35,302 bases of DNA. Source: an uncultured Candidatus Saccharibacteria bacterium (GTDB taxonomy: Bacteria; Patescibacteriota; Minisyncoccia; Phycocordibacterales; UBA918). How positions within the stretch are numbered: position 1 is the stretch's first letter; every line of letters starts with the position of its first letter. The notes under the pieces were generated by a model. The model was not told the DNA's origin, searched no databases, and saw nothing but the letters and a program-made list of their open reading frames with translations. Of the stretch, positions 1,138 through 34,468 are shown piece after piece. The position numbers and the translations under genes were made by a program. Where the stretch lies: the NCBI GenBank assembly GCA_964402035.1, contig CAYOAM010000003.1, positions 228,657 to 263,958 on the forward strand, read 5' to 3'.

Positions 1138-1268
1138 AGGGATCGAAGACCGTGTGAGATCTTTTCAAAGAAAAGTCCACACGGTGTACTGAAGTTGTAG
1201 ACTTCGATCCCTGGTGGGCGGACAAGTACACAAAATCTCCCCTGCGGGAGATTTTGTGTACTTGTCCG
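1138..1268 (+). repeat. tRNA-3'-associated structured element (type A) with duplicated tRNA-Lys 3' end
   Basis: AGGGATCGAA (anti T-arm), stem ACCGTGTG/CACACGGT, GTACT, hairpin GAAGT-TGTAG-ACTTC, tRNA 3' end copy 1203-1226, 23-bp-arm hairpin 1219-1268. Confidence 0.85.
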
Positions 1269-1270
1269 AC

Positions 1271-1357
1271 GCGCAGCGATGTTTCTGTTCTGCGAAGCAG
1301 AGGCAGAAACCGCGAGCGGGGATCGCGAAATTTTTCCGTCAGGAAAAATATTCGTGA
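1271..1357 (+). repeat. structured repeat (type B), copy 1
   Basis: Shares GCGAAATTTTTCCGTCAGGAAAAATATT (1325-1352) exactly with 34528-34555, plus a homologous upstream hairpin. Confidence 0.8.
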
Positions 1358-1385
1358 TGACAAGGAACAGCACCTGCGTGCTGTC

Positions 1386-1754
1386 TTACAAAGGCATATC
1401 AACCGCAAATGCTCCAGCGCCCGTGATAAAAAGTGAAAGTGAAATAGCGATAAGCAGTACAAAAAAAGCTCGCTCAGGTACATAGGCCGCACATTTTTTA
1501 TGAAAAATAAGTAGTGAGATTGCGAGTGCTAGGACACCAAGTGCTGCAAGTTGTGTTAAAAATCCAACAACAAAAAGTCCACCGAGAGAAAGTTCAAGCA
1601 TACCCAATAGTATGAGTGCGATACGTGGTGATTCCGGCGCGTGAGACTTGCGCAAATGCTGTATACCAAAGATTGCGAGGGCGCCACCGGTGATGATACG
1701 CAGTATCGCGTGCGCCAAAAGCGCGAGAAACATAATAGGGAATACGGCCATCAT
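1386..1754 (-). CDS. DoxX family membrane protein
   Basis: LRIITG...FG..H, ELSLGGLFVVGFLTQLAA and C-terminal GAGAFAVD motifs; 4 TM segments. Confidence 0.85.
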   Translation of the reverse strand: MMAVFPIMFLALLAHAILRIITGGALAIFGIQHLRKSHAPESPRIALILLGMLELSLGGLFVVGFLTQLAALGVLALAISLLIFHKKCAAYVPERAFFVLLIAISLSLFITGAGAFAVDMPL

Positions 1755-1776
1755 GCGAGTAGTGTATCATGCACGA

Positions 1777-2259
1777 ATGTCGAAAAAAGATATACCGCTG
1801 TATGTGGTTCTACACAATATACGCAGCGCTCAAAATGTGGGTGCGATATTCCGTACTGCCGATGCGGTGGGTATTGCCGAGCTATTGCTAGTTGGGTACA
1901 CGCCAACACCCATTGACCGCTTTGGACGACCACAGGGTGCTGTAGCAAAGGCATCCTTGGGCGCGGAGCACACAGTTCCGTGGCGACATATCGATACAAT
2001 AGAGGAATGCATCCGCTATCTGCGAAGAAAAGAAGTGTCGATCTGTGCGGTTGAGCGTGCAAAAGAGGCAGTACCATACACGACCGTTAAAAAGGATCAA
2101 CCGACTGCTTTTATTTTTGGTAATGAAATTGAGGGTGTGCTGCAGGCAGTCATCGATAGTGCCGACGTATGTATTGCGCTACCGATGTATGGCAGTAAAG
2201 AATCGCTCAATGTGTCGGTGACAGCGGGTATTGTCCTCTATGAGTTCAGAGAGGGGTGA
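1777..2259 (+). CDS. TrmH/SpoU family RNA methyltransferase
   Basis: SPOUT motifs LHNIRSAQNVGAIFRTADA, FGNEIEG, LPMYGSKESLNVSVTAGI; start moved to MSKKDIP. Confidence 0.92.
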   Translation: MSKKDIPLYVVLHNIRSAQNVGAIFRTADAVGIAELLLVGYTPTPIDRFGRPQGAVAKASLGAEHTVPWRHIDTIEECIRYLRRKEVSICAVERAKEAVPYTTVKKDQPTAFIFGNEIEGVLQAVIDSADVCIALPMYGSKESLNVSVTAGIVLYEFREG

Positions 2260-2302
2260 AAGGTGCTGGGAGCACCTTTCACGAAACATTAGACTCAGTA
2301 TC

Positions 2303-3274
2303 CTAATATTTCAACACCGCAACAACGCGGTCTTCATTATCAAGCAAACGAATAATCTCGCGTTCGCCGCGCCAGAGATCGTCATTTTCATCAAGGTAAA
2401 TGTGCCAGGTTGACTGCAAAAAGTATGCGTCATATTGATGATTTTTTAGACATCCTGTGTAGGAGAGCGTATCGTCAGCAAACGTACGACAGCTTTTTGA
2501 AACATTGGCGCGGTCAGCATTCACGATGCGACAAGAAGACAGTGTTTCGACGAAGTCATAGCAAGCATCATTGTCGAGTGCAATTTTTGCAAATGTTTCC
2601 ATTTCGGTCAGCGGATTGGGGCACTGCTGACTCAATGAAGGGGTGAACTCTTGGAACTGGGCAAAGTATCCGGTGCACATATTTTCTCGAAACGACATAC
2701 CAATAGGGGATTCTCCTGTCACAATATATGCGGTATCTCCCGCTGTGAGCATGATGTCGTTTTCGGTAGAGTCAGATCTACTTTTTGGTTTTCTATTACC
2801 TTGTGGAATGGTCCCTGCATTTTTAGTTACTGTGCTCTCGATACGCCAGCCAGAGACATTAATCGGTATTGTGATATCACTTGCGGCATAGAGGGTGAGG
2901 TATTCGGCGTCTTCATCGTCGCTCCACACATTGCCGCTTTGTAATGTGATCTTGTCTTTGTATGGCGAAACGGTGCCCCAGAGTTTGGTATCGGCAATCC
3001 CTTGTTTGAGATCGGTAATAGTCTGTTGGGCGCGCGCAACTTCTGCTTGTACTTGATCGGGTGAAAGTGGGGCTGCGGATTCCTGTTCCGTTTGCGGAGC
3101 AGCACTGATGGATGTCTGATTATCTTGCAATAGTGTCTGTTCTCCTGTTGATGTAGCGTGCGGGGCGATGGTTCGTAGGGTGCCCGAAGCGACAAACCAC
3201 ATACAGATGATGATGCCGAAAAAGACGACTAAAAATCCCGCGCTATTACCACCTCCTGCACTTTCATCAGCCAT
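2303..3274 (-). CDS. membrane-anchored extracellular protein, possible lamin-tail-like domain with Cys-rich insert
   Basis: N-terminal TM helix; EYLTL...PINVSGWRIES and LW..ERE.IRLLD.E..VV segments resemble LTD-type domains; six Cys in the C-terminal half; overlaps the murE stop. Confidence 0.65.
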   Translation of the reverse strand: MADESAGGGNSAGFLVVFFGIIICMWFVASGTLRTIAPHATSTGEQTLLQDNQTSISAAPQTEQESAAPLSPDQVQAEVARAQQTITDLKQGIADTKLWGTVSPYKDKITLQSGNVWSDDEDAEYLTLYAASDITIPINVSGWRIESTVTKNAGTIPQGNRKPKSRSDSTENDIMLTAGDTAYIVTGESPIGMSFRENMCTGYFAQFQEFTPSLSQQCPNPLTEMETFAKIALDNDACYDFVETLSSCRIVNADRANVSKSCRTFADDTLSYTGCLKNHQYDAYFLQSTWHIYLDENDDLWRGEREIIRLLDNEDRVVAVLKY

Positions 3275-4568
3275 GGCGTTTTGATTCTCCACTACCAAAT
3301 AAATATGCTATTTCTCCTCGCACGGTTTCTGCATCACTCCATGGTGTCTTCGTGTTTCGAGGTCCCATAATGTATGGGTCCGTGCCTTTTCCAGTAATCA
3401 AGACTACTCCTTTGTCAGGTGCGATGCGGAGCGCATGACGTATTGCTTCGCGACGATCCATAATGACCGTGAGTTTGCTCTGATCTTCGATACCGCGCTT
3501 CATATCTTCAATAATCTTGTCGGGAAGTTCGTCGTATGGATCTTCGTCGGTCAAGATAATGTGCTCACAATATTCTCCCGCGATCCGTCCCATTTCAGGA
3601 CGCTTCCATGTGTCGCGTCCACCACCAGTGTTTCCCAAGACACAGATCTTTGGTGTGTCGCCAAATGCTTTGTATAGCTTTTCAAGTGAGTCAGGTGTGT
3701 GCGCATAGTCAACGATTGCAGAAATTTGTTTTCCTGCGCCTTGAGGTACTGTTATTTTTTCAACACGTCCTTTTATGGGAGCGAGATTGCCAAGTGCTCG
3801 CTCGATGATCTTGAGTGGTACGCCAAATGATCGCGTGCAGGCGATTGCCGCGATGACGTTGTATACATTGAAGAGTCCCACGAGTGGTGTGCGGATAGTT
3901 AGTCCTTCAAAAACGACGCTGACCCCATCTTTGGTCAAGGTGTGGAGTTCTGGGTCTTTGAGTGAATAGGGGATACGCTTTTCTACCATCGCCTTGAGAA
4001 AATCCTCACCATGTTCATCATCAGCGTTTACGATGATGCGTCGTGGACGTTTCCGTGATTGCTCAAGTTCGTGCACGATCGAAAGTTTTGCTTGTTTATA
4101 TTTTTCAAATGATCCATGCGACTCGATGTGTTCAGGAGATAGGTTGGTGAAAACCAAAGCATCAAGGTCAATGAACTTGTGACGATATTGCTTTGCTCCC
4201 TCGCTCGTCATCTCGATGATGGCAACATTGCAACCAGCAGAGACCGCGTCACGCAAAAACTTTTGCATAAACATACGCCCCGGCATGGTCATTTTAAAGA
4301 GATTTGGTTCGGTTCGTTCGCCAATTTTAAAACGAATCGTCCCCGCAACTGCAGTGCGTTTTCCATCTGCTTCAAAGATGGCATTGATGAGCTCGGTCAC
4401 CGTTGATTTCCCTTTTGTGCCGGTGACTCCGACGACGGTTATTTCTCGTGAGGGAAAGCCATACCAAAAGGCACCGATAAGGGCGAGGAGGTAGTGATAT
4501 GGTGGGCGAAATGCACCTAAGAGACGGCTCGGAATCAGGCGTTTGAGGTAGTACAAGAGGGTGTTCAT
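3267..4568 (-). CDS. murE: UDP-N-acetylmuramyl-tripeptide synthetase (MurE)
   Basis: GVTGTKGKST P-loop, EMTSEG, FTNLSPEHIESH, GLFNVYN, VDYAHTPDSL, GGGRD..KRP.MG, ITGKG; start at MNTLLYY. Confidence 0.92.
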   Translation of the reverse strand: MNTLLYYLKRLIPSRLLGAFRPPYHYLLALIGAFWYGFPSREITVVGVTGTKGKSTVTELINAIFEADGKRTAVAGTIRFKIGERTEPNLFKMTMPGRMFMQKFLRDAVSAGCNVAIIEMTSEGAKQYRHKFIDLDALVFTNLSPEHIESHGSFEKYKQAKLSIVHELEQSRKRPRRIIVNADDEHGEDFLKAMVEKRIPYSLKDPELHTLTKDGVSVVFEGLTIRTPLVGLFNVYNVIAAIACTRSFGVPLKIIERALGNLAPIKGRVEKITVPQGAGKQISAIVDYAHTPDSLEKLYKAFGDTPKICVLGNTGGGRDTWKRPEMGRIAGEYCEHIILTDEDPYDELPDKIIEDMKRGIEDQSKLTVIMDRREAIRHALRIAPDKGVVLITGKGTDPYIMGPRNTKTPWSDAETVRGEIAYLFGSGESKRHG

Positions 4569-4641
4569 ACGTAGCGGATACCCAATTATAGCGCAAGATT
4601 GCCCTAGAGGCATCAACACATAGTTTTTACGGTAAAAAGGG

Positions 4642-5208
4642 TTATTTCGACAAACTGCGTAGCGCTTCCTTCACGCGGTCGTTGGTGTTTTTGATTGAGG
4701 GGTCGATGCGCTGTACTGCATCACGCGCTTCTTTTTGGCTATAACCTAGCGTTACCAGAGCATCGATAGCGTCACTGTTGCCGTGTTCTCCGGGAGCAAC
4801 CATGTCATTTCCTTCAAATTTGTCTTTGAGACCCATTACAATTTTTTCAGCACTCTTTTTCCCAATACCTGACATCTTCGAAAGGTAAACAGGGTCTTCA
4901 GACGCAACTGCTTTTTTAATGAGTTCAATATCCGCTTGCGAAAGAATTTGCATGGCAGATTTGGGGCCAATCTTTGGGAGGTCGATGAGCATCTCAAACA
5001 TCTCAAGATCGTCGAGGGAGAAAAAGCCGTAGAGGTCGAGTGCGTCTTCGCGCACGGCTAGGTACGTATGTAAAGACAGGGCGTTGCCTATGGCAAGCCC
5101 TTCGGCGCGCCCATTCTGTATAGCGACCAAGTACCCAACCCCATGAACATCGAGCACAATCCGCCCCAAGCGTATATCGGAGACAACCCCTGTGAGCATG
5201 CGTATCAT
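4642..5208 (-). CDS. ruvA: Holliday junction branch migration protein RuvA
   Basis: MIRMLTG start, DVHGVGYLV, VREDALDLYGF, HhH IGPKSA and GIGKKSAEKI, DAIDALVTLGYS. Confidence 0.96.
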   Translation of the reverse strand: MIRMLTGVVSDIRLGRIVLDVHGVGYLVAIQNGRAEGLAIGNALSLHTYLAVREDALDLYGFFSLDDLEMFEMLIDLPKIGPKSAMQILSQADIELIKKAVASEDPVYLSKMSGIGKKSAEKIVMGLKDKFEGNDMVAPGEHGNSDAIDALVTLGYSQKEARDAVQRIDPSIKNTNDRVKEALRSLSK

Positions 5209-5291
5209 AGATGTGATATAGCCGTATGGTAGCACAAATAGTCCCCACCTAAGCATTGCGTAATCTGGGCATCTTCCTATAGTGAGTCTAT

Positions 5292-8228: not shown

Positions 8229-8229
8229 T

Positions 8230-8712
8230 ATGGAATTTATACGTACATGGTTATGGGAAGGGAGAAGAAAATATGTCTACTCGTTGTCTCTGCTGGGTCT
8301 ATGGGCATGGTTGGCGGCTTATTTTGTGTGGGAGAGTTTTGGGAAATCTCTTTGTCCGACCAGAGAAGCATTTGAAGCAATTACTAAGGAATATGAACAC
8401 TGCGTGAATTGGTATCTCTACACCATTCACAATCCATTTTTCTTCGGGCACTTTTTAAAAACCGTTATTCTACTCCCGCTTCTATTTTTATTTCCCTTTT
8501 CAACGCTCACATTCCGCGCATGGGCTACATTTTCTGCATTACTTATACCTACTGCGATTTACAGCATTATCACTGCCCCGACATATGGTCAATTTTTCGA
8601 TAAGGTGATGACGAGCACTACCTGGGGCGCTTTTTATGTCTGTGGTACCCTGTCTATTATCATCCTTATTCCACTTGGTGAATATCTCTATAAAAAGTTT
8701 AAGGCAAAATAG
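8230..8712 (+). CDS. 4-TM membrane protein coupled to the lipase gene
   Basis: Starts 1 nt after the lipase stop; four hydrophobic segments and a Cys pair in the first loop. Confidence 0.75.
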   Translation: MEFIRTWLWEGRRKYVYSLSLLGLWAWLAAYFVWESFGKSLCPTREAFEAITKEYEHCVNWYLYTIHNPFFFGHFLKTVILLPLLFLFPFSTLTFRAWATFSALLIPTAIYSIITAPTYGQFFDKVMTSTTWGAFYVCGTLSIIILIPLGEYLYKKFKAK

Positions 8713-8977
8713 TGTCATTACAGAGATTAATCAGTCGTTCCCAACCCAAGATTTATTAGCTACAATACCAAAAATATCATGGCAGAAAATGGTGAATGCC
8801 ACCATTTTTCCGAGGACAGAACATTCCAGCGTTTCGAGAAAAAGGAGTATGAAAAATCAGAGAAGGATTTGTATATAAAGAAAAAGAAGTGTAGACAAAC
8901 TGCTCATGTAGGTTGGCGGTATGACAGGCCAAAAAAATGCGTGGCAGGCTTCTTTGCGTACCATTAAAATCTCTGGA

Positions 8978-9592: not shown

Positions 9593-9605
9593 AAACTAAG
9601 AAAAG

Positions 9606-24289: not shown

Positions 24290-24294
24290 TCAAT

Positions 24295-26939: not shown

Positions 26940-26940
26940 C

Positions 26941-26972
26941 AAAAAGACCACCCAATGAGGGTGGTCTTTTTG
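26941..26972 (+). terminator. rpsT intrinsic terminator (bidirectional)
   Basis: AAAAAGACCACCC-AATGA-GGGTGGTCTTTTTT. Confidence 0.85.
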
Positions 26973-27146
26973 TTATACTTGATATATTTCCTCCGCGGTC
27001 CGTTGGGGTCAGATTCGTAATTCGTTTTATCTTTCAGTAAATTTTGTATAGCTTTTGTGGTCACGAATCACTAAGTAACATGCTACGCATGTGTACTAAG
27101 TGTTCTCGACCCCACCTCGCGGTCGCTAAAGCGACATCGCTGCGGT

Positions 27147-27376
27147 CAGCACAAAAGCAGAAAACCTGCCGCAGGGCAGGTGTCTCTGTCTTTTGTGCTC
27201 CCGGCAGGAAGTTCGGTTCTTACAGAACCAGTACCCTGATTGGATTTTCTGTTCGCGCTACGCACTCCATAAAATGCTCAATCAGGCTTCGATTCCTTAA
27301 AAACAATACCCCGTATTGTTTTTTGTTCGCACTGATATGAAAAAACTGCCAAAAGGCAGTTTTTTCATATCAGTGC
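27147..27376 (-). repeat. tRNA-3'-associated structured element (type A) downstream of tRNA-Arg(GCG)
   Basis: Minus strand: 22-bp-arm hairpin, AGGAATCGAA anti T-arm, CCTGATTG/CAATCAGG stem, GTACT, GGTTC-TGTAA-GAACC, 16-bp tRNA 3' end copy (27195-27210 = 27373-27388), second hairpin. Confidence 0.82.
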
Positions 27377-27445
27377 TCCCGGCAGGAATCGAACCTACAT
27401 TACAGGCTCCGCAAGCTTGCGTCCTATCCGTTGAACGACGGGAGC
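27374..27445 (-). tRNA. tRNA-Arg(GCG)
   Basis: Reverse complement GCTCCCG-TCGTTCAACGGATAGGAC-GCAAGC-TTGCGGA-GCCTG-TAATGTAGGTTCGATTCCTGC-CGGGAGC-A; anticodon GCG. Confidence 0.92.
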
Positions 27446-27481
27446 AGATATCGCTTTTGAGCGATAAAAAGAAGCATACCG

Positions 27482-27985
27482 TTAAAATCCTAAAAGTTCC
27501 AGTAGGCGGTGCCCGATTGATTCTTCAAGGTGTTCTTCTGGCAGCCGCTCCTCAAGGAAATATTCGATATCCTCAACAGCATCTTCAGGCACCGGGATGA
27601 TCATTAGGGGCGCCAAAAGGTGCTTTGATTGTAGAAATAGTTGTGCAGTTTGTGGATGTTCTTCGTCCAGATAGAAGCATTTGAGTGTACTGTATGGGTG
27701 TAGATCGTTTCCGATGCGTACGCCGCGCAGCGAGACACTGTAGGTGATCATGCGGGGTTTTTTTGAAGAGAGTAGGGCAGTCACGGTACCTGCGAGCAAG
27801 ATCACAATACCAAAGAGCACGTTGCCGTAGACGATCATCGCGACTGAGCTCGCGATCGTGATAATGCCAAGTGCCCAAAACCAGTCACTGCCTTTTTCGG
27901 TGTGATGATGTTCAGGTGCGTCCCATGATATTTCACGGAGTCGGCCTGTTGGCTGTTCAATATCCTCTACATAGTCTGCTTCCAT
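27482..27985 (-). CDS. conserved hypothetical 2-TM protein with C-terminal PH-like domain
   Basis: ISWDAPEH..EK.SDWFW, two TM helices, then YSVS.RGVRIG..LHPY..L.CF; pattern recalled from CPR genomes. Confidence 0.75.
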   Translation of the reverse strand: MEADYVEDIEQPTGRLREISWDAPEHHHTEKGSDWFWALGIITIASSVAMIVYGNVLFGIVILLAGTVTALLSSKKPRMITYSVSLRGVRIGNDLHPYSTLKCFYLDEEHPQTAQLFLQSKHLLAPLMIIPVPEDAVEDIEYFLEERLPEEHLEESIGHRLLELLGF

Positions 27986-28042
27986 AGGTTTATTTTAGCA
28001 CAGCGCCAGGGGGTGCGCGCATCATAAGGGGTATTAAATTGT

Positions 28043-28207
28043 TGCGGAGAGCGTGAGATTCGAAACGTATCGTTTCAGTACCCGTTCAGGATATTTTTGT
28101 GCTCCGCCAGCTGGCGGAGCACTCCTCCAAAACTATCTCTGAATGGCTTCGAATCTCGTCCTCCTGTTACAAAAAACACCCACAAGGGGTGTTTCTAAAA
28201 ACAGGTG
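28043..28207 (-). repeat. tRNA-3'-associated structured element (type A) downstream of tRNA-Ser
   Basis: Minus strand: hairpin, GAGATTCGAA anti T-arm, CCATTCAG/CTGAACGG stem, GTACT, GAAAC-GATAC-GTTTC, degenerate tRNA 3' end copy (28043-28064). Confidence 0.78.
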
Positions 28208-28294
28208 CGGAGGGAGAGAGATTCGAACTCTCGACCCAGTTTCCCAGGTGACAGTTTTCAAGACTGTTGCTTTAGACCACTCAGCCATCCCTCC
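28208..28294 (-). tRNA. tRNA-Ser(UGA)
   Basis: GGAGGGA acceptor, ACAGT-CTTGAAA-ACTGT anticodon arm, long variable arm, GTTCGAATC T-loop, G discriminator. Confidence 0.96.
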
Positions 28295-28384
28295 AAGGCT
28301 ATATATTGCGTGAGTACCACAGGATAGTAGCAAAAAACCTTGGTAATATCCATGGTTATCAATCATTGTGGTATGCTTTTCTGC

Positions 28385-28774
28385 ATGCGGTATATGGGTA
28401 TTGATTATGGCAGCAAGCGGGTGGGGGTGGCACTGTCTGATGAATCGGGGAGTATGGGTTTTCCGCATGCGGTGTTTCCAAATGACTCGGCGCTCAAGGC
28501 ACGGGTTGTAGCGCTTGTTGCTACCGAGCATGTTGGAGCGCTGGTTGTTGGGGACTCTTATGGACTTCACGGCAATAAAAATCCCATAGCGACGCAGGCT
28601 GATGTTTTTGTAAAATCTCTTGCTACAGAGCTAGCGATACCGATACACTATGAGTCGGAAATGTTTTCAACACAGGAAGCGGTCCGTGAGCAGGGGAGAA
28701 ATGAACTTACCGACGCATCCGCAGCCGCTATCATCCTCAATAGTTATCTTACACGTTTAAAAAACACCACATGA
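28385..28774 (+). CDS. ruvX: Holliday junction resolvase-like / pre-16S rRNA nuclease RuvX (YqgF)
   Basis: MGIDYGSKRVGVALSD, ESEMFST.EA, DASAAAIILNSYL. Confidence 0.92.
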   Translation: MRYMGIDYGSKRVGVALSDESGSMGFPHAVFPNDSALKARVVALVATEHVGALVVGDSYGLHGNKNPIATQADVFVKSLATELAIPIHYESEMFSTQEAVREQGRNELTDASAAAIILNSYLTRLKNTT

Positions 28775-29100
28775 TTACCTACGATGATTTTGCAAAGCTG
28801 CAGATTGTACTTGGAAAGGTACTTTCCGTTGAGCCGGTGCCGGAGGCAGACAAACTCTTGCGCCTCATGGTAGATGTCGGCGAGGAAAGCCCAAGACAGA
28901 TTGTCTCGGGTATTCGTACGTACTTTGAAGATCCGCAGGTACTGGTCGGGAAAACTTTTCCCTTTCTTATAAATTTGGAATACCGGACGATTCGTGGTGT
29001 TGAAAGTCAGGGGATGATACTCGCGGCAAGTACTGCTGAAGGAAATTTTTCGTTACTCGCGCCCGAAACTCCTCTCGCGCCTGGTTCGCGTGTAAAATAA
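28771..29100 (+). CDS. stand-alone tRNA-binding OB-fold protein (Trbp111/MetRS C-terminal-like)
   Basis: ITYDDFAKL, ADKLLRL.VDVG, RQIVSGI, NLEYRTIRGVESQGMILAA, PGSRVK. Confidence 0.9.
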   Translation: MITYDDFAKLQIVLGKVLSVEPVPEADKLLRLMVDVGEESPRQIVSGIRTYFEDPQVLVGKTFPFLINLEYRTIRGVESQGMILAASTAEGNFSLLAPETPLAPGSRVK

Positions 29101-29111
29101 ATGTTCGATAG

Positions 29112-29160
29112 GTGACGGCACAAAAATCCAGAACACTGTTCTGGATTTTTGTGCCGTCAC
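29112..29160. terminator. perfect palindrome with 24-bp arms (terminator or cruciform)
   Basis: GTGACGGCACAAAAATCCAGAACA-C-TGTTCTGGATTTTTGTGCCGTCAC. Confidence 0.6.
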
Positions 29161-29227
29161 TCCGGGCGCACAGTCACACTGTGTGTATGTCGCGTATTTT
29201 TGAGTAGATGCATCGTATAATACGAGT

Positions 29228-30325
29228 ATGCGTGTGTCTTCATTGTTCTCGCGGATGTTTCCGCCGCCGCGTTTTATGACGCTCCCCTCTGCGGGCGTTG
29301 ATATTTCTGATGCGTCTCTCAAGTACGTGCAGTTTAAACATGGTGGTCGCAGACTTGAATTGGTGACGTGGGGCGATATTCCTATTCCGGAAAAGACGGT
29401 CAAGCGAGGTGATTTGCAGAACAAAGACAATTTAGTTGCCGTGCTCAAAGAATTTAAGCAAAAGACCCGTGTCGAGTATGTCCGCGTTTCACTCCCTGAA
29501 GAGCGCGCGTATTTGTTTGAAACAACGGTGGAAAAAGTCTCGTCGCCTCGTGAGATCAGAAACGTCCTTGAATTTAGACTCGAAGAAAACGTGCCCCTTT
29601 CTCCACGTGATGCCTACTTTGACTATGCAGTGGTCGGAAAAAATCCCACAACGCATGCACTCACAGTTGGTGTTGCAGTCTACGCTCGCGATACGATCAA
29701 CGGCTACTATGAAGCGTGTCGTAGTGCGGGACTCATACCGCTTTCCTTTGAAGTAGAGGCGCAAGCTATTGCCCGCGCGGCAGTACGATCGGGCGAGCGT
29801 GGTGCCTTTATGATTGTTGACTTTGGTCAGTCACGCACCGGTGTTGGTATTGTGTACCATGGCACCTTGATGTTTACCTCAACCATCGATATTGGCGGAG
29901 CGCAACTAAGTGATGCAATGCGGCGTCATATTGGGGCGATTGAAGAGTCGGAGATAACCCGTATCAAAAATACCCAAGGATTATTGCGCTCAGAAGAGGC
30001 GGGTGGAGAAGTCTATACTGCGCTCCTCTCCTCAATTGCGACGCTCAAAGATGAACTCAGTATGCGCATCAACTATTGGAATGTGCATGGAGAGGGTGTA
30101 ACCGATCGTGGTATTGAAAAAATTATTCTCTGTGGAGGTAGTGTAAATCTAGCGGGGCTCCCGGAGTATTTTACCGAGGAACTTGAAATACCGACTGAGC
30201 GTGCACAAGTTTGGCAAAACGCTTTTTCTTTTCAGGATGTGGTGCCGCCAATTACACGAAGATACTCCTATGGGTATGCAACCGCAATTGGGCTTGCGCT
30301 CACTGATTTTGTACCAGAACTATGA
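29228..30325 (+). CDS. pilM: type IV pilus assembly protein PilM
   Basis: GVDISDASLKYV, actin-like IVDFGQSRT, IGGAQL, IILCGGSVNLAGL, YATAIGLAL. Confidence 0.9.
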   Translation: MRVSSLFSRMFPPPRFMTLPSAGVDISDASLKYVQFKHGGRRLELVTWGDIPIPEKTVKRGDLQNKDNLVAVLKEFKQKTRVEYVRVSLPEERAYLFETTVEKVSSPREIRNVLEFRLEENVPLSPRDAYFDYAVVGKNPTTHALTVGVAVYARDTINGYYEACRSAGLIPLSFEVEAQAIARAAVRSGERGAFMIVDFGQSRTGVGIVYHGTLMFTSTIDIGGAQLSDAMRRHIGAIEESEITRIKNTQGLLRSEEAGGEVYTALLSSIATLKDELSMRINYWNVHGEGVTDRGIEKIILCGGSVNLAGLPEYFTEELEIPTERAQVWQNAFSFQDVVPPITRRYSYGYATAIGLALTDFVPEL

Positions 30326-30858
30326 TAAATCTCATTCCGAGCGAAGCGCAGTCACTGGTCCGTCGTGAGTATCTCATGCGCGTCTATACGGTATGGGCAC
30401 TGTTGTTTGCGGGCGCGATACTTGTCGGAGCAACATTGCTCATTCCAACGTTTGTATTATTTTCAAAGCAAGTGTTGATTGATGAAGATATAAAAATCGA
30501 AAATGCGACGACTGATGCAGATTATACAAAGACCGTAGAGGAGTTGAAGCGAGCAACCATGCTTGCGGATCGCCTATCGACTGTGGGGTCTACGGTATTG
30601 GCGTCGGATATTGTGGCGCATGTTGAGGGAGCGCGATCCGAACATGTGTCACTTGAGAATTTGTCGATCACGTATGAAAAGAAGGTGTCACGTATTGAGG
30701 TGCGAGGTATTGCTGAGACACGTGAGGCACTCTCGCTATTTTTGGAAACCATAAAGCGGGATGCATTTTTCCTCGATGCGCAAGTCCCAGTGTCTGATCT
30801 AGCGAGGGATACAAAATTGCCGTTTACCGCAACACTCACGTTACGTATGACACCATAA
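30322..30858 (+). CDS. pilN: PilN-like pilus assembly protein
   Basis: MINLIP (INLLP motif), TM helix, IEVRGIAETREAL..F ferredoxin-like domain; overlaps the pilM stop. Confidence 0.8.
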   Translation: MINLIPSEAQSLVRREYLMRVYTVWALLFAGAILVGATLLIPTFVLFSKQVLIDEDIKIENATTDADYTKTVEELKRATMLADRLSTVGSTVLASDIVAHVEGARSEHVSLENLSITYEKKVSRIEVRGIAETREALSLFLETIKRDAFFLDAQVPVSDLARDTKLPFTATLTLRMTP

Positions 30859-30863
30859 GAGCT

Positions 30864-31397
30864 ATGTCACCAAAAACACTACAATCAGTAATCTTTGCTA
30901 CCATTGTGCTATTGAGCGCGTGTACATTGTATGGAGGTCTTTGGTATGTGACGCACTTACGTGAAGTGGGGATGCGCGAACGCGCACAGTCACAAGCTGT
31001 TGCGCATGCACGAAATCTGGAGCTTACCGCGCTTGCAAAAGTGCGTGCGGATACCGAAACATCACGAGCAAAACTCAATGATTACTTGTTGACCGACAAT
31101 GGTGTCACCGTTTTTTTGGGACAGATGGAAAAAGCAGCGCGTGCACGTGGACTTACGATTGCAACCCAATCGGTGAATGTTGAACCGATAGACGGAACGA
31201 CAGCATTTGCATCATTCGTATTTACCTTTGAAGTGGGTGGTACCTTTGCTTCGGTCACACAGTTTTTGGCGCTTCTTGAGACGATGCCGTATCAGTCTAC
31301 GATTACAAGCACTATGTTGTCGCGAGAGTCTCGGAGCGATAGTGATTCGTGGAAAGGGGTATTCACCGTGAAGGTCACTAAAGAAAAGAAACTATGA
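30864..31397 (+). CDS. pilO: PilO-like pilus assembly protein
   Basis: TM plus coiled coil; GTFASVTQFLALLETMPY; follows pilN. Confidence 0.75.
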   Translation: MSPKTLQSVIFATIVLLSACTLYGGLWYVTHLREVGMRERAQSQAVAHARNLELTALAKVRADTETSRAKLNDYLLTDNGVTVFLGQMEKAARARGLTIATQSVNVEPIDGTTAFASFVFTFEVGGTFASVTQFLALLETMPYQSTITSTMLSRESRSDSDSWKGVFTVKVTKEKKL

Positions 31398-31798
31398 ATA
31401 TAGATCTTCATTATAATCTGGCGCGACTGCGACGATCAAAAAAAACAGATCACCGCTTTGAATTGGTGCGTCCGTTTCGAGAGTGGTTTACCGGATTTAT
31501 TTTGGCGATACTCATCTTTGGTATCGGTGGGGTGTACGCTGGTTGGTGGTTTTCGGTTAATCGACAGGTGGGTGATAGGGTAGTAGAGGTGCCTCCAGAA
31601 AAAAGCTATACCTATGACCATAGTCGTGTGGAAAAGGTGCTGGATCTCTATCGTGCGCGCGAGGATGCATTTTCTGCACTACAAAATTTGCCTACTCCCG
31701 TACCAGCAGTAGTTGAAAAGCCGGTTACAGAAAAGGAAGACGAAGAGGTGGTGCCGAAAGCTCCCATTGTAGAGAGTACTCCGAGCCTTGTTGAGTGA
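31394..31798 (+). CDS. single-TM protein at the end of the pil operon
   Basis: Overlaps the pilO stop; one TM helix, Pro/Glu-rich tail. Confidence 0.7.
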   Translation: MNIDLHYNLARLRRSKKTDHRFELVRPFREWFTGFILAILIFGIGGVYAGWWFSVNRQVGDRVVEVPPEKSYTYDHSRVEKVLDLYRAREDAFSALQNLPTPVPAVVEKPVTEKEDEEVVPKAPIVESTPSLVE

Positions 31799-31801
31799 AG
31801 G

Positions 31802-31844
31802 TCAGCCTAGCACTTACTTTTCTTGAAAGTAAGTGCTAGGCTGA
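31802..31844. terminator. long hairpin ending the pil operon
   Basis: TCAGCCTAGCACTTACTTT-TCTTG-AAAGTAAGTGCTAGGCTGA, 19-bp perfect arms. Confidence 0.65.
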
Positions 31845-31854
31845 GTCGGTAAAA

Positions 31855-31879
31855 CCCCCTGTAGTTCAATGGATAGAAC
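31855..31879 (+). pseudogene. tRNA 5' fragment (Arg-like acceptor strand plus D-arm)
   Basis: CCCCCTG-TAGTTCAATGGATAGAAC, parallel to GCCTCGA-TAGTTAAATGGATATAAC of the adjacent tRNA; no 3' half. Confidence 0.6.
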
Positions 31880-31909
31880 CATAAGGAGTTGGGTGGTGGG
31901 AAATAACAT

Positions 31910-31981
31910 GCCTCGATAGTTAAATGGATATAACTGCGGACTTCTAAGCCGTTATTCCAGGTTCGATTCCTGGTCGAGGCA
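31910..31981 (+). tRNA. tRNA-Arg(UCU)
   Basis: GCCTCGA/TCGAGGC acceptor, anticodon loop CTTCTAA, CCAGG-TTCGATT-CCTGG T-arm. Confidence 0.93.
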
Positions 31982-32198
31982 CTGGTACAAAAGATCCGAC
32001 CTCGTGTCGGGTTTTTGTATGAGACCAAGGAATCGAAAAGGTTGCCAGATATTTTAGAAGCGAAGCGTACTAAAATATCGACAACCTGTACTGAATGTGT
32101 AACATTCGATTCCTGGTCGAGGCACTGGTACAAAAGATCCGACCTCGTGTCGGGTTTTTGTATGAGACCAAGGAATCGAAAAGGTTGCCAGATATTTT
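31962..32198 (+). repeat. type A tRNA-associated element with 94-bp exact direct repeat (period 143 bp)
   Basis: 31962-32055 = 32105-32198; the unit includes AGGAATCGAA, AGGTTG/CAACCT stem, GTACT and GAATG-TGTAA-CATTC. Confidence 0.9.
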
Positions 32199-32268
32199 GT
32201 GAGTCGTTGTAACTATGACTCATAATAAAAAACGCACTGCCTAAGCAGCGCGTTACTTCCCCTGTCCC

Positions 32269-32886
32269 TCAAGTACTAATTCCGCAAGACCGGATTATAC
32301 TCAGCTGCTCCGTAAGATCTCTTAGCAGTTCCTCTCGCCTTTGTCTTAGAAGTTGGCGTGGTACTAGTATGCTTGCTAATGCAGACACTAGCATCAACAA
32401 CCAAGTGCATCCGACAAGAATTTTTATTGGCCACGACGAGGTCACGAAACTAGAGGTTAAAGGTAGGAGGTATATTCCTACTACCGGGCCGACTGCAAAG
32501 GCACCGGAGAGCAGCACGATCGGTACATCTAGTGCTGACCACCAATGTCTGAGCTTGGAAGCAATTCTTATTTGCTCAGATGCTGCCCATCCTCGCACCA
32601 TGGGAGTAGCAACTGTTTTCGTATAGCAGGTATCTTCAGGTCCCCAAGCTCCAACGAGAAACGTTTTCCCGTTTGTTTTTTGGAGTAATACTGCCGAGAC
32701 TAGCGCACTCTTGTGGTGATGTGAACACACGGTGAATGTGCCACCTGCCTGCTCCTTTGCTTCTGTCCACAGCTTTAACATCTGGGACGGCATTTCACAA
32801 AGTGCTGCATACCCTGAGTCATTGTCGTGCCATCCATGATAGCGGTTGATGACCTCGAGCTCATCGCCACTGATTTCTCTCACCAT
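32269..32886 (-). CDS. hypothetical protein with two C-terminal TM helices
   Basis: 205-aa ORF with a soluble N-domain, 2 TM segments and a basic tail. Confidence 0.6.
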   Translation of the reverse strand: MVREISGDELEVINRYHGWHDNDSGYAALCEMPSQMLKLWTEAKEQAGGTFTVCSHHHKSALVSAVLLQKTNGKTFLVGAWGPEDTCYTKTVATPMVRGWAASEQIRIASKLRHWWSALDVPIVLLSGAFAVGPVVGIYLLPLTSSFVTSSWPIKILVGCTWLLMLVSALASILVPRQLLRQRREELLRDLTEQLSIIRSCGIST

Positions 32887-33032
32887 CTTTTCTGCCCCAT
32901 ATCTCTATCTAAGCATGATGCTTAGAATATTGTCTGTGAGCAGTAAACCAAACAATCTTCCTCTTGGCAATCTGTGCCACATTGTTTAGTTTTCTATAAA
33001 AAGTGTATGCTATCGGTAGATCGGAGGTTGCC

Positions 33033-33485
33033 ATGATGCTGTCAGCACATGACTTCTTACAATGGTTGCGCCCTCGTAGGATTGGCTACGAAGACATAGT
33101 CTCGTATGTCAAAAGGATGGATGCGTCTCGGAGTATTGGCTTTTTCTCGAAAGATCACCACCTTGCGAAGGTTATCGAGTATTGTCTTCGAGTCGGATGG
33201 TATCCGATTATAGATAAACCCCTACAAGTGGTCATCGCAATACCAGGTAGGCATCACACCATTCGTGCTGCATTACTTAGGTATCACCACAACAGCCCTT
33301 GTATTGGCGAGACATACTTTGCTCAGGCCGACAGGTATACCTTTGAAGGGTGGGGGTATCATTTTTCTTCGCGGGGTCGAGCTCTCGTTGTTGGCCTTTC
33401 CTATCGAGAGATTGGTGCCGATGAGGAATTGTTCCGTTGGCATAAGACAAAACTCTTGCTTCTTGCGGAGCCATCGCAGCGTTAA
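33033..33485 (+). CDS. hypothetical protein (tandem paralog 1)
   Basis: GGAGG SD before MMLSAH; alignable with the next ORF. Confidence 0.75.
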   Translation: MMLSAHDFLQWLRPRRIGYEDIVSYVKRMDASRSIGFFSKDHHLAKVIEYCLRVGWYPIIDKPLQVVIAIPGRHHTIRAALLRYHHNSPCIGETYFAQADRYTFEGWGYHFSSRGRALVVGLSYREIGADEELFRWHKTKLLLLAEPSQR

Positions 33486-33655
33486 AGTACTTTGTTTCGG
33501 CAGATCACTTTTCTTTGCACGAATTCAAATTTCAGCTAATGTCCTGCACTGCTACGCAGGACATTTTTCTAGCTGCAGTTTATAACAATGTTGAATTACC
33601 GCAAGATCAAGCGTATAGTTTTAGGTGGTTTGTAGTACCGACCTATGGGGGAGAT

Positions 33656-34105
33656 ATGAGCGCTTCCGAGTTAGTGGCTGTACTGGATGATAAGAATGTT
33701 GCCTACGCTGGTTTGGTTGCGGCCATTCGTAGCTTCATCAGCACAAATTCTATTGTGCACGTTGTTAAAGACGAGCACATATGCCGGCGTGCTGAGACGC
33801 TTCTGAATGATGGATTCCATCCGATTTTTGATCGTCTTGGGATTATTGGACTCAAGGGATCCCGCGCATCCTTAAGAGAATTTAGAGGTTTGCTCTACTG
33901 GTACCATGCCGTGGCGGCTGGGTGTACGCCAGCTGAGAAAGATGATAGACCTGATTCCTACACATGCACAAGCAAGGGCTACCATTTTTCAATTACTAGT
34001 GGGCAATGCTTGCTTGTCGTGGGTGCACGATATGTACCAAATGAGTACGACAGGTTGCTGTTTGCGAAATATCGTCCCTCGATATTTTCGCGTCTAAAAG
34101 AATAG
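33656..34105 (+). CDS. hypothetical protein (tandem paralog 2)
   Basis: GGGGGAG before MSASEL; shares KDxH, GxxPIxD, DxYTxxxxGYHFS and LVVGxxY with the previous ORF. Confidence 0.75.
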   Translation: MSASELVAVLDDKNVAYAGLVAAIRSFISTNSIVHVVKDEHICRRAETLLNDGFHPIFDRLGIIGLKGSRASLREFRGLLYWYHAVAAGCTPAEKDDRPDSYTCTSKGYHFSITSGQCLLVVGARYVPNEYDRLLFAKYRPSIFSRLKE

Positions 34106-34142
34106 CGCACTCACCGTTTTACGCTACGGTGGGTGCTTTTTA
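34106..34142 (+). terminator. intrinsic terminator
   Basis: GCACTCACCGT-loop-ACGGTGGGTGC followed by a T run. Confidence 0.7.
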
Positions 34143-34156
34143 TAAATGCAGGTATT

Positions 34157-34184
34157 TTGCATGAAATCAAATTTCAGCTATACT
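34157..34184 (+). promoter_or_regulatory. sigma70-type promoter of tRNA-Val
   Basis: TTGCAT-16 nt-TATACT, 16 nt before the tRNA. Confidence 0.6.
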
Positions 34185-34200
34185 GCAGAGCGTGGATTGA

Positions 34201-34273
34201 GGGCGATTAGCTCAGTTGGTAGAGCGGCTCATTTACACTGAGAAGGTCGGGGGTTCAAGTCCCTCATCGCCCA
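34201..34273 (+). tRNA. tRNA-Val(UAC)
   Basis: GGGCGAT/ATCGCCC acceptor, TAGCTCAGTTGGTAGAGC, anticodon loop TTTACAC, GGTTCAAGTCC. Confidence 0.96.
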
Positions 34274-34317
34274 CAGATACACAATCCGGCTTCATGCCGG
34301 TTTTTGTGTATCTGTAA

Positions 34318-34468
34318 GATGAGTGAGACTTGAAGGGGTTGCCAGATATTTTATAACTGAAAGGAAATAAAATATCGACAACCCGTACCGAACATGTAAT
34401 GTTCAAGTCCCTCATCGCCCACAAAAGACATAAACACCTGCCCTTCGGCAGGTTTTATGCTTTTGTGG
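34318..34468 (+). repeat. type A tRNA-associated element downstream of tRNA-Val
   Basis: GATGAG..GACTTGAA anti T-arm, GGGTTG/CAACCC stem, GTACC, GAACA-TGTAA-TGTTC, 23-bp tRNA 3' end copy (34401-34423 = 34253-34275), hairpin. Confidence 0.85.

Follow-up and report, generated by a model that had tools for sequence, protein, structure and literature searches.

A new family of covarying repeats at tRNA gene ends that seems to spread with no known transposase

In the IS200/IS605 family, a guide inside the element base-pairs with the flanking target, and insertion takes place 3' of that target. The integron attC site and the hairpin of the CTX phage attP(+) site, which is used by Xer, are recombination sites formed by a folded single strand. 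The GTTC of the tRNA T-loop might resemble the GTT core site of attC. Among integrative elements that target tRNA genes are satellites lacking an integrase and island arrays, of which the tycheposons of Prochlorococcus are an example. In plant mitochondria, t-elements are tRNA-like processing signals. The repeat described here resembles each of these systems in some respects and differs from each in others.

The window, a stretch of 35,302 nucleotides from an uncultured Candidatus Saccharibacteria bacterium, contains exactly five tRNAs according to ARAGORN and Rfam, and a reading of the sequence places the same module 3' of all five (Table 1). The module begins with a spacer or terminator, which is followed by X' (complementary to the 3' part of the tRNA), the long stem P2, the tetranucleotide GUAC, the hairpin P3, and X2, which repeats the tRNA 3' end. 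The original description of a T-loop complement, a long stem, GTACY, a covarying hairpin and a repeated tRNA 3' end is in agreement with this reading at each of the five genes. Of the five GTACY motifs, four read GTACT and the fifth GTACC. The hairpin is 15 nt long and its arms covary; the loop is TGTAA or TGTAG in four of the five copies and GATAC in the Ser copy. The tRNA copy is exact (21-23 nt) at Lys, Arg-UCU and Val, but only 16 nt are exact at Arg-GCG, and the Ser copy is degenerate. The Lys X2 overlaps the 3' arm of P3 by TTC. The GAACGAAGTGA motif of the Lys spacer is seen again 3' of other tRNAs. The pattern GTACYGNNNNYGTAR occurs four times in the window, where 0.01 occurrences are expected.

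Table 1. Positions of the tRNAs and of the parts of the five elements in the window.
Feature	Position	Strand	Details
tRNA-Lys(UUU)	1014..1087	+	ARAGORN, Rfam, sequence reading
X1 of tRNA-Lys(UUU), T-loop to 3' end	1067-1088	+	
Lys spacer with conserved loop motif GAACGAAGTGA (L*)	1089..1103	+	Sequence reading
Lys X', whole	1104..1148	+	
Lys X', part complementary to acceptor 3' strand	1104-1111	+	
Lys hairpin hp1	1112-1136	+	GGGG loop
Lys X', part complementary to T-loop/T-stem	1137-1148	+	
Lys core	1149..1205	+	P2 1149-1185; junction GTACT 1186-1190; P3 hairpin 1191-1205
Lys element, covariance model R1 match	1137-1217	+	75.3 bits
Lys X2	1203..1224	+	22-nt exact copy of tRNA-Lys 3' end
tRNA-Arg(GCG)	27373..27445	-	X1 27373-27393; ARAGORN, Rfam
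Arg-GCG spacer and hp1	27299..27372	-	Spacer hairpin L, containing A and T tracts, ~27333-27372; hp1, GGGG loop, ~27299-27325
Arg-GCG T-loop complement and core	27215..27298	-	T-loop complement 27287-27298; P2 27235-27286; GTACT 27230-27234; P3 27215-27229
Arg-GCG element, covariance model R1 match	27203-27298	-	73.6 bits
Arg-GCG X2	27195..27214	-	Last 16 nt identical to tRNA; T-loop part CGAACTTCC replaces TTCGATTCC
tRNA-Ser(UGA)	28207..28294	-	X1 28206-28227; ARAGORN, Rfam
Ser spacer and X'	28147..28205	-	Terminator-like hairpin L 28163-28205; X' 28147-28162
Ser core	28062..28146	-	P2 28082-28146; GTACT 28077-28081; P3 28062-28076, loop GATAC
Ser element, covariance model R1 match	28050-28158	-	72.7 bits
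Ser X2	28043..28064	-	tRNA-Ser 3'-end copy, degenerate
tRNA-Arg(UCU)	31910..31982	+	X1 31962-31982; ARAGORN, Rfam
Arg-UCU spacer and X'	31983..32038	+	Terminator-like hairpin L 31983-32022; X' 32023-32038
Arg-UCU core	32039..32107	+	P2 32039-32087; GTACT 32088-32092; P3 32093-32107
Arg-UCU element, covariance model R1 match	32027-32119	+	96 bits
Arg-UCU X2	32105..32125	+	tRNA 3'-end copy, 21 nt, exact
Arg-UCU second tandem unit, truncated	32126-32198	+	Exact repeat of L, X' and first P2 half
tRNA-Val(UAC)	34201..34274	+	X1 34253-34275; ARAGORN, Rfam
Val spacer and X'	34276..34335	+	Terminator-like hairpin L (stem-loop 34286-34300, T tract); X' 34318-34335
Val core	34336..34404	+	P2 34336-34384; GTACC 34385-34389; P3 34390-34404
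Val element, covariance model R1 match	34324-34416	+	95.7 bits
Val X2	34401..34423	+	tRNA-Val 3'-end copy, 23 nt, exact

The element is about 90-170 nt in size and folds, on the tRNA-sense strand, as a three-way junction of the helices P1, P2 and P3, with GUAC in the junction. P1 is the closing helix and, at tRNA genes, consists of X2 (the copy of the T-loop-to-3'-end segment) paired with X'. The long stem P2 contains a bulged A and a GA-rich internal loop; P3, a hairpin of 5-6 bp, has a U-GUA-A loop. RNAalifold, applied to 18 copies, gave 22 pairs, 19 of which show compensatory changes. In an alignment of 130 distinct copies from 31 genomes, which had been fitted to the covariance model, 93.7% of the pair cells are paired and both sides have changed in 659 of them. 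None of 500 shuffles of this alignment reaches the observed value, and slid controls are 25-44% paired. The strong covariation in both alignments supports the reading as a conserved structured element. G-U and U-G combinations outnumber A-C and C-A on the sense strand (77 vs 23), which indicates that the fold is selected on that strand. A127 and C128 of the junction are conserved at 100%, U126 at 95% and G125 at 94%, and the GUA of the P3 loop at 99%. Cores at different tRNAs of different genera are up to 94-96% identical, and the genes flanking these cores cannot be aligned at the DNA level. Such conservation across genera would be expected just as much of a functional RNA.

The tRNAs were the sole matches (5) to Rfam 15 in the window at the gathering threshold. 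Nothing overlaps the elements at E values up to 5, and the loci of orphan copies are likewise without a match; the element has no matching Rfam family at either setting. It is a new, abundant repeat family, called family A. The covariance model finds 42 copies in the source genome (G000, 1.03 Mb) and matches in 32 of the 41 genomes of the order; nine have none, and there are no matches in 150 other genomes sampled from the phylum. Family A is restricted to this order of small-genome bacteria. The number of copies per genome ranges from 0 to 43, the latter in G015, and there are tandem arrays with shuffled modules. Together with the core identity between genera, these features show an element that behaves as a proliferating one, in line with the earlier suggestion that it is non-autonomous and mobile. 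A second, similarly built family, B, also exists, and a member of A or B follows nearly every tRNA of the source genome, while orthologous tRNAs variously carry family A, family B or nothing. Empty and filled sites could be compared within one genus: the tRNA-Ser(UGA) site is empty in G035 and G017, with 470-630 nt seen, and contains cargo and an element in G032. Furthermore, the paralogous Lys(CUU) locus resembles an empty Lys(UUU) locus.

Of the 37 tRNAs of the source genome, 18 are followed, at a distance of 109-310 nt, by a repeat of their own 3' end (13 nt with at most 2 mismatches, searched over 700 nt downstream). No such copy lies upstream of any of the 37. Among the best matches of the tRNA-derived model, a sample biased in favor of tRNA loci, 22 of 38 distinct copies in the source genome and 68 of 92 in its relatives lie within 350 nt behind a tRNA on the same strand; 16 and 58 of these, respectively, have at least 10 nt identical to the tRNA tail. 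Metagenome copies found with a pattern that omits the T-loop are behind a tRNA in 31 of 68 cases. The unbiased census of G015 places 13 of 43 matches behind a tRNA, an excess over chance estimated at about 27-fold. The enrichment at tRNA 3' ends is supported; most copies in this genome (30 of 43) do not adjoin a tRNA. More than 15 tRNA species are used, as well as 5S rRNA. One copy lies within a duplicated 3' segment of the 5S rRNA gene, and the gene copy on its 5' side is direct, not inverted, which fits poorly with a simple guide model. The P1 arms of orphan copies away from tRNAs are arbitrary, and P1 may therefore be a mere closing helix.

The arms X' and X2 vary from site to site and match the local tRNA. 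The T-loop complement is the best conserved part of X'. X' often reaches into the acceptor 3' strand, although this part is often missing, and a small hairpin, hp1, whose loop reads YGGGR, splits the complement. The hp1 and L* hairpins are element-specific and sit between the target-derived segments; the relative position at which such hairpins break X' does not vary between the copies of different tRNAs. An intrinsic-terminator-like hairpin or the conserved GAACGAAGTGA loop is found between the tRNA and the element; in most cases it is the terminator-like hairpin with its T tract. Of 39 tRNA-linked copies with a diverged X2, 30 have an X' that is a better fit to the real tRNA, 6 an X' that is a better fit to X2, and 3 an X' that fits both equally. 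X' tracks the functional tRNA sequence rather than X2. This preference, like the terminator-like hairpin that usually comes ahead of the element, bears on the suggestion of a pre-tRNA trailer switch that would sequester the T-arm. The pairing of X' in the Glu and Gln copies includes the discriminator and the base that follows it, and the T-loop nucleotides are likewise base-paired. The cargo had been put at 100-180 bp, which is correct in the window but not elsewhere: at tRNA-Tyr a 5.9 kb gene island separates the tRNA from its element and X2, and at other loci single ORFs occupy this interval. None of the cargo ORFs has a recombinase domain.

The source genome, which is 99.3% complete, has no match to the reverse transcriptase PF00078, TnpB PF07282 or IS110 PF01548 families. 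Its only tyrosine recombinase is one Xer-like PF00589 gene, and its one large serine recombinase is far from all copies. A link to HUH/RAYT enzymes, which had been proposed from the hairpin-foot motif, is not supported across the 41 genomes: Y1/RAYT genes are not associated with the element. PF01797 matches 24 of the 41 genomes (by tally, 21 of the 32 with the element and 3 of the 9 without), and a RAYT-like protein used as the query gave the same picture. G015, with its 43 copies, has no Y1 gene, whereas G020, G025 and G028 have Y1 genes but lack the element. Integrases, reverse transcriptases, TnpB and IS110 transposases likewise do not co-occur with the element. Two pattern scans of viral contigs gave eight chance matches, none confirmed by the model, and no matches, respectively. 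The element seems to spread to the ends of tRNA genes with no known transposase.

The explanation preferred here, plausible though a little short of probable, is that of a mobile element which is non-autonomous, carries a guide and homes to the 3' ends of stable-RNA genes with an enzyme supplied in trans. In a single-stranded form, as ssDNA or RNA, it would be guided by X' together with the GAA in the 5' arm of P3. These would pair with the sense strand of highly transcribed stable-RNA genes (tRNAs, 5S rRNA) at the 3' end and direct insertion into that end or immediately behind it, so that the gene would remain intact and its tail would be duplicated. The duplicated tail might then serve as a fresh target, giving tandem arrays, with cargo genes riding between the repeats; cutting and joining would have to be done by the enzyme acting in trans.

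The main rival, which is somewhat unlikely, holds that the element is a functional RNA module acting in cis within the transcription units of stable RNAs, and that duplication and homologous recombination, rather than transposition, have spread it. Read-through from the tRNA or 5S gene would yield the three-way-junction fold, with putative roles in 3'-end formation, exonuclease protection, processing or control of pre-tRNA folding; X' would be antisense to the tRNA tail and X2 would mask X'. This agrees with the G-U excess on the sense strand, with RNA-like motifs (conserved terminal loops, the bulged A, a tandem-GA-like internal loop), with the very high conservation between genera and the linkage to tRNA and 5S rRNA genes, with the presence of A or B behind nearly every tRNA of the source genome, and with the tracking of the real tRNA by X'. 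However, the usual T-tract hairpin ahead of the element would make co-transcription inefficient, and since the Glu and Gln copies have a paired discriminator base, P1 does not offer RNase P, RNase Z or CCA addition a tRNA-like acceptor end. The tRNA-free majority in G015, the uneven copy numbers with nine genomes lacking any, the exchange of A, B and nothing at orthologous tRNAs, and the cargo genes that separate tRNA from element also speak against a cis-acting module.

Classical site-specific integration into tRNA genes, by an integrase carried on a phage or plasmid outside the assemblies, is improbable. The elements would then be scars of such integration or miniature integrative elements: an attP with the 3' part of the tRNA would recombine with the T-loop region, X1 being element-borne, X2 the displaced host end and the core an attP arm. 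The direct repeats do start in the T-loop, with the upstream gene intact and the distal copy decaying; they bound cargo islands and accrete in tandem, and at one locus a second copy of the tRNA-Ser(GGA) 5' part lies upstream of the gene. Nevertheless, more than 15 tRNA species and 5S rRNA would all have to be targets of a single integrase. A tyrosine-recombinase match is present in 40 of the 41 genomes and is mostly one Xer-like gene only. Absence from the scanned viral contigs and the orphan copies without tRNA flanks weigh in the same direction, and an attP needs neither the inverted copy X' nor a strand-specific covarying fold. It is very improbable that the tailored arms are a mutational by-product with no targeting function, made by quasi-palindrome template switching or microhomology-mediated copying at a palindromic T-loop hexamer, from tRNA tail to X' to X2. 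X1, the hairpin, X', the core and X2 do form nested palindromes, TTCGAA is palindromic and occurs in many T-loops, X' follows X1 with X2 lagging, and the spacer L is duplicated along with X in G007 and at Arg-UCU of the window. Outward growth of a palindrome, however, predicts the reverse of what is seen, since X' is best kept where it complements the segment of X1 that is most distant from the spacer hairpin. Hairpins specific to the element break X' at a constant relative place, the duplicated Arg-UCU spacers are direct rather than inverted copies, and the strong tRNA enrichment would be left unexplained.

Several known systems can be set against the guide-bearing mobile element that is preferred here. 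The partner proteins of IS110 bridge RNAs, TnpB omega RNAs, and group II introns or retrons have no match in the source genome. A MITE of a DNA transposon has terminal inverted repeats that stay constant and short target-site duplications of fixed length, whereas X' and X2 differ at every site and match the local tRNA. Small self-cleaving ribozymes (hammerhead, hairpin, twister, pistol, hatchet) are similar in size, in a junction with invariant junction and loop nucleotides, and in tandem repeats; known ribozyme models in Rfam give no match at E up to 5, and the hammerhead core motif is absent from the elements on reading. Like t-elements, the repeat has a helix copying the acceptor and T stem in the transcript beside a gene. 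Unlike them, it pairs the T-loop nucleotides and the discriminator, has no free acceptor end or elbow, is multi-copy with a conserved core, often has terminators upstream, and is missed by the Rfam tRNA model.

The IS200/IS605-derived PATEs and REP/REPIN sequences, which Y1 (HUH) transposases or RAYTs mobilize, are also short non-autonomous hairpin repeats with a tetranucleotide at the hairpin foot and a strand-specific single-strand structure, here GUAC between P2 and P3 with the G-U bias noted above. The guide, however, is 10-22 nt here and 4-5 nt in IS200/IS605, the fold is a three-way junction, and Y1/RAYT genes do not co-occur; both RAYT-like genes of the source genome are flanked by other, unrelated repeats. 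IS200/IS605 insertion proceeds 3' of a target of 4-5 nt that is not duplicated, whereas the tRNA-linked copies lie between direct repeats, 16-23 nt long, of the tRNA tail. The attC and CTX attP(+) sites share with the element function in a folded single strand, conservation of structure over sequence, arrays whose units are set apart by such sites and a folded arm that mimics the target duplex. They differ in being bulged hairpins, with AAC/GTT core sites and extrahelical bases in attC, in their target, which here is a tRNA tail, and in the integron integrase, which is lacking here; most genomes have no second tyrosine recombinase, and the dif-like palindromes of the source genome do not resemble the element.

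It is unlikely, yet worth stating, that the element represents a new class of nucleic-acid-guided mobile elements. Such an element would combine a three-way-junction core of ~100 nt with a split, reprogrammable guide (X' and the P3 5' arm) pairing with the exposed sense strand of stable-RNA gene 3' ends (any tRNA, 5S rRNA), would be inserted by a host or other enzyme without a classical transposase, and would regenerate its own target, leading to arrays and cargo capture. If so, the conserved fold might itself join in the chemistry. Parallels in genomic arrangement come from the tRNA-targeting integrative elements, including tycheposons, which likewise have direct repeats of the tRNA 3' part (here at 18 of 37 tRNAs in the source genome and for 58 of 92 copies in relatives), an intact gene, tandem accretion and cargo between the repeats. 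Integrative elements use a tyrosine or serine integrase, whereas most genomes here have only one Xer-like gene, the serine recombinase is distant and the cargo is recombinase-free. Unlike such integrative elements, the repeat comes in units of ~140 nt, uses more than 15 tRNA species and 5S rRNA, and has an inverted copy of its target and a conserved, covarying fold.

All five tRNA genes of the window (five by ARAGORN, five by Rfam) are followed by a copy of family A. This element runs from a spacer or terminator hairpin (L) through X', the complement of the tRNA's own T-loop-to-3'-end, the stem-loop P2, a GUAC junction and the hairpin P3 to X2, a downstream copy of the tRNA tail. When the sequence was read again, the order of parts in the original prediction held behind all five genes and its coordinates needed essentially no change. 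The predicted complement of the T-loop was found in every copy, as a stretch that pairs with the T-loop and the T-stem 3' strand of its own tRNA, and so was the long stem-loop P2. P3, claimed to be a hairpin with covarying arms, is 15 nt long, and its arms vary from copy to copy with their complementarity kept. The GTACY motif, described as invariant, is present throughout, reading GTACT in four copies and GTACC in one. The claimed copy of the tRNA 3' end was found as well: X2, which ranges from the T-loop to just beyond the discriminator, matches exactly over 21-23 nt in the Lys, Arg-UCU and Val copies and over the final 16 nt in the Arg-GCG copy, and the Ser copy is degenerate. There are four occurrences of the motif GTACYGNNNNYGTAR in the window compared to 0.01 expected from shuffles.

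Several features had not been predicted. X' frequently extends into the acceptor 3' strand, and a small hairpin whose loop reads YGGGR (hp1) breaks it. Between the tRNA and the element there is either a terminator-like hairpin with a T tract or a conserved loop, GAACGAAGTGA. At Arg-UCU a second, truncated unit follows in tandem. Both hp1 and the L loop keep their positions in copies whose X' and X2 arms are fitted to different tRNAs. Other tRNAs of the source genome are followed by a second repeat, family B, which has the same grammar as family A, a different core, and a position behind tRNA ends or behind X2. Its first part is a terminator hairpin, with the final ~5 nt of the tRNA in the outer stem. 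It continues with a stem (GCGCAGC..GAGC) and then a long hairpin (GGGGTCGAGAGCACTTAG...CTTAGTGACTNGTGACC or variants), and ends with a short copy of the tRNA's final bases. Tandem arrays of family B occur, and at Leu(CAG) and Phe it has full T-loop complements and tail copies, as in family A. Family B has no Rfam match.

The 700 nt downstream of each of the 37 tRNAs found by ARAGORN in the 1.03 Mb source genome were searched for tail copies. A near-exact, 13-nt copy of the gene's own 3' end lies 109-310 nt downstream of 18 of them, and none of the 37 has such a copy upstream. The covariance model R1, built from an alignment of 18 copies, has 42 matches in this genome. Of 41 genomes sampled from the order, 32 have matches, among them 21 of the 24 other members of the source genome's own taxonomic family, with 0 to 43 copies per genome (43 in the relative G015, 27 in G001), all cross-genome counts being inflated by kinship between the genomes. 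In an evenly drawn sample of the phylum (genomes of 0.5-1.2 Mb, the order being represented by one further genome and the class by five, with 28 candidates scored per genome), the single match among 151 genomes was in the source genome itself. A 20-nt pattern of P2 and the junction was found in at least 119 metagenome contigs, a few of which are chance hits. No Rfam family overlaps the element, even at E up to 5, and no known RNA family matches it at the orphan-copy loci or at the locus of an intron-containing tRNA. A full-text literature search found no description of such an element. PMC9897764 deals with tRNA fragments derived from integrative elements and CRISPR in archaea, and passages of bioRxiv 10.64898/2026.10.21.760802 make no mention of the element. 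Family A is undescribed, whether it is a mobile element or a functional RNA.

The fold of family A is real and strand-specific. From a MAFFT alignment of 18 copies, RNAalifold predicts a three-way junction of 22 pairs, 19 of them with compensatory changes. Pairs were counted in 135 R1 matches (130 distinct) from the source genome and 30 relatives. In the 130 distinct copies 93.7% of 2804 pair cells are standard pairs, in an alignment that is fitted to the model and so favours the model's pairs; the MAFFT alignment, independent of the model, gives the same picture. Changes on both sides are found in 21 of the 22 pairs (659 cells), none of 500 shuffles equalled the pairing values, and just 25-44% of positions paired when the partners were slid. 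The support from covariation is unusually clear, and the prediction of a covarying structure is upheld. Among the cells that are not Watson-Crick on the tRNA-sense strand, 77 are G-U or U-G and 23 are A-C or C-A, so selection acts on the fold as a single strand of this polarity, be it RNA or the top strand of the DNA. At the junction, A127 and C128 are conserved at 100%, G125 at 94% and U126 at 95%. P2 has a bulged A and a GA-rich internal loop. The first pair of P3 is G-C and its loop is U-GUA-A at 99%; the GUA of this loop and the UAC of the junction, both nearly invariant, are possible pseudoknot partners.

Of 90 tRNA-linked copies, 51 have an X2 that is practically the same as the tRNA tail. 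In the other 39, X2 has diverged; the better complement of X' is then the real tRNA in 30 copies and X2 in 6, with no difference between them in 3. Thus the arm inside the element follows the functional gene. In the relative G032, X' still tracks the tRNA across hundreds of bases of cargo, and where a recurrent variant of X2 carries two extra bases in its T-loop part, X' is still perfectly complementary to the tRNA. Outward growth of a palindrome was considered as the origin of X' and rejected, because the distribution of complementarity does not fit.

Within 350 nt behind a same-strand tRNA lie 22 of 38 distinct copies in the source genome (16 of the 22 with at least 10 nt identical to the tail) and 68 of 92 in the relatives (58 of the 68), figures that are biased upward because the loci are best hits of a model made from tRNA-linked copies. 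Two less biased counts are lower. In G015, which has 45 tRNAs, 13 of 43 hits follow a tRNA at a distance of up to 400 nt. With a pattern that excludes the T-loop, 31 of 68 copies are behind a tRNA among the listed metagenome matches with enough upstream sequence. The preference for tRNA gene ends in G015 is estimated to be roughly 27-fold, in agreement with the enrichment expected at tRNA 3' ends. These less biased counts make family A a dispersed repeat that strongly favours tRNA ends, not an obligatory appendage of tRNAs. More than 15 tRNA species are used across the genomes.

One copy of the element is behind the 5S rRNA gene, where its core lies inside a duplicated 51-nt 3' segment of the gene. 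The duplicated segment begins 130 nt downstream of the 5S gene and is split 35|16 by the core. Another copy is upstream of tRNA-Ser(GGA), and there the 5' part of the same tRNA is duplicated. The closing helices of orphan copies are arbitrary in sequence. Orphan-type pairs abut the 5' ends of both tRNA-Glu genes on the opposite strand. Elsewhere two tandem orphan units begin at the stop codon of an upstream ORF. The first small hairpin there has the final codons of the ORF as its 5' arm and the stop codon in its loop. The RNase P RNA of the source genome is followed by a terminator alone, without the element; its match is 487 nt long for a model of 367 positions and scores 85 bits, below the 100-bit cut-off. 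In this genome, rated 99.3% complete, no tmRNA was found by ARAGORN and no SRP RNA with RF00169.

The P2-P3 cores are up to 94-96% identical between genera and between tRNAs, and a 2-kb query that includes the flanking genes aligns at the tRNA and the element only. The nearest neighbour of a core is in its own genome in 45 of 133 cases, compared to 14.5 expected. Orthologous tRNAs in related genera carry family A, family B or nothing. The empty and filled sites that a mobile hairpin should leave can be compared within one genus: in two species nothing follows tRNA-Ser(UGA) over the 470-630 nt seen, and in a third it is followed by a small gene and the element. The Lys(CUU) paralogue resembles an unoccupied form of the Lys(UUU) locus of the window.

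The array behind the intron-containing tRNA has the order X-L1-X'1-core1-X-L2-X'2-core2-X-L2-X'2-core2-X-L1-X'1-core3, so modules are exchanged at X and at the X'/core boundary. This tRNA gene, missed by ARAGORN, has an insert that resembles a group I intron (Rfam Intron_gpI, 45.3 bits against a cut-off of 50, E 5.9e-10), and three family A units with a period of 139 nt come after it. Copy numbers are uncertain at two runs of N, either assembly gaps or withheld bases, inside repeat arrays behind tRNAs. Cargo genes occur as well. The products of a 5.9 kb island between tRNA-Tyr and its element are an aminotransferase IV, a WelO5-like 2OG oxygenase or halogenase, a GFO/IDH oxidoreductase, a peptidase S51 and a 373-aa protein resembling the AlaRS catalytic domain (an AlaRS-like fragment). 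It may be a small biosynthetic cluster. The core is replaced by a 166-aa ORF in one unit at tRNA-Ser(CGA) and by a DUF6671 gene in the relative G006. The cargo ORFs include no recombinase. In contig-level DNA runs of one sample, possibly the source, only contig breaks and repeat-induced joints were seen, with no excision or empty-site form.

The source genome encodes one Xer-like tyrosine recombinase and one large serine recombinase, the latter not linked to any copy, and has no match to RT, TnpB or IS110 transposase. A tyrosine-recombinase match is present in 40 of the 41 genomes and is single in most. The link to HUH/RAYT enzymes suggested in the original prediction did not hold up. RAYT/Y1 genes occur in 24 of the 41 genomes without relation to the element: G015 and G001, rich in copies, have no Y1 gene, and G020, G025 and G028 have Y1 genes but no element. 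The two RAYT-like Y1 genes of the source genome (~225-230 aa) bear other flanking repeats, inverted GGGGACAGGGACAATA-type repeats on contig C1 and CTTGGAAGYCSGRCTTCCAAG hairpins on contig C2, both unlike the element. A first pattern hit 8 loci on viral contigs, of which the model confirmed none and at none of which there was a tRNA; a second pattern had no hits. As to mimicry of Xer/dif sites, the two dif-like palindromes (ATAA-N6-TTATG type) that a generic motif picks out in the source genome do not resemble the element.

Locations of repeats, genes and associated features in the window and on contigs C1-C4 of the source genome
Feature	Location	Strand	Remark
Family B	window 1225-1373	+	
Family B	window 34424-34560 and onward	+	
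Family B	window ~27040-27194	-	
Family B	loci L006, L007, L028, L031		
Family A at 5S rRNA (L046)	C2:225772-226140	-	
Orphan-type pair at tRNA-Glu	C1:13738-13920	-	
Orphan-type pair at tRNA-Glu	C1:386525-386710	-	
Tandem orphan units	C2:268580-268765	-	
RNase P RNA match	C4:12921-13407	-	
Intron-containing tRNA	C3:74640-74990	-	locus L020, 909-1117
Run of N in array	~C2:92800-93090		behind tRNA-Thr(UGU)
Run of N in array	C3 ~73925-74015		
Cargo island (L044)	C1:62340-68229		5.9 kb between tRNA-Tyr and element with exact X2
Large serine recombinase	C3:190814		
RAYT-like Y1 gene	C1:209322-210011	+	
RAYT-like Y1 gene	C2:105944-106630	-	
dif-like palindrome	C1:294664-294691		
dif-like palindrome	C3:167442-167469		~150 nt upstream of tRNA-Pro

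With slightly less than even confidence, we regard family A as a non-autonomous element that chooses its site by pairing with the sense strand at the ends of stable-RNA genes. The strand-specific conserved fold, combined with an internal arm complementary to the tail of the flanking gene, points in this direction, as do the tail copy regenerated at the far end, the arrays, the cargo, the patchy distribution and the high similarity between genera. Such an element would have a single-stranded intermediate, X' would serve as the guide, and insertion would be enzymatic. The conservation and the G-U bias are accounted for equally well if family A is instead an RNA module with a function in tRNA and 5S transcripts. 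This main rival deserves serious weight but is on the whole unlikely; it fits poorly with the terminators between tRNA and element, with the many copies away from tRNAs, with the cargo and with the patchy distribution.

Parts of the data, but only parts, could also be explained by classical integrase scars, which seem improbable, or by arms of purely mutational origin, which seem more improbable still. The idea that the element imitates a tRNA acceptor for RNase P or RNase Z is weakened by the pairing of the discriminator. A mobile family A would mean that extremely reduced genomes, without the usual transposases and integrases, have a naturally programmable system for homing to tRNA tails. 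The islands between repeats would then make it a candidate route of gene gain for these bacteria, and it could lead to a recombination or ligation activity hitherto unrecognised. As a functional RNA, family A would be a structured RNA specific to the order, abundant and bound to the ends of tRNA and 5S genes, with a possible role in RNA maturation. Hundreds of copies are retrievable from genomes and metagenomes.

Defining features of attC and CTX attP were looked for in the element and are absent, and the likeness to them is that of folded single-strand sites. IS200/IS605 elements choose their sites by guide-target pairing. Family A lacks defining features of these too, but its proposed guide-target principle resembles theirs.
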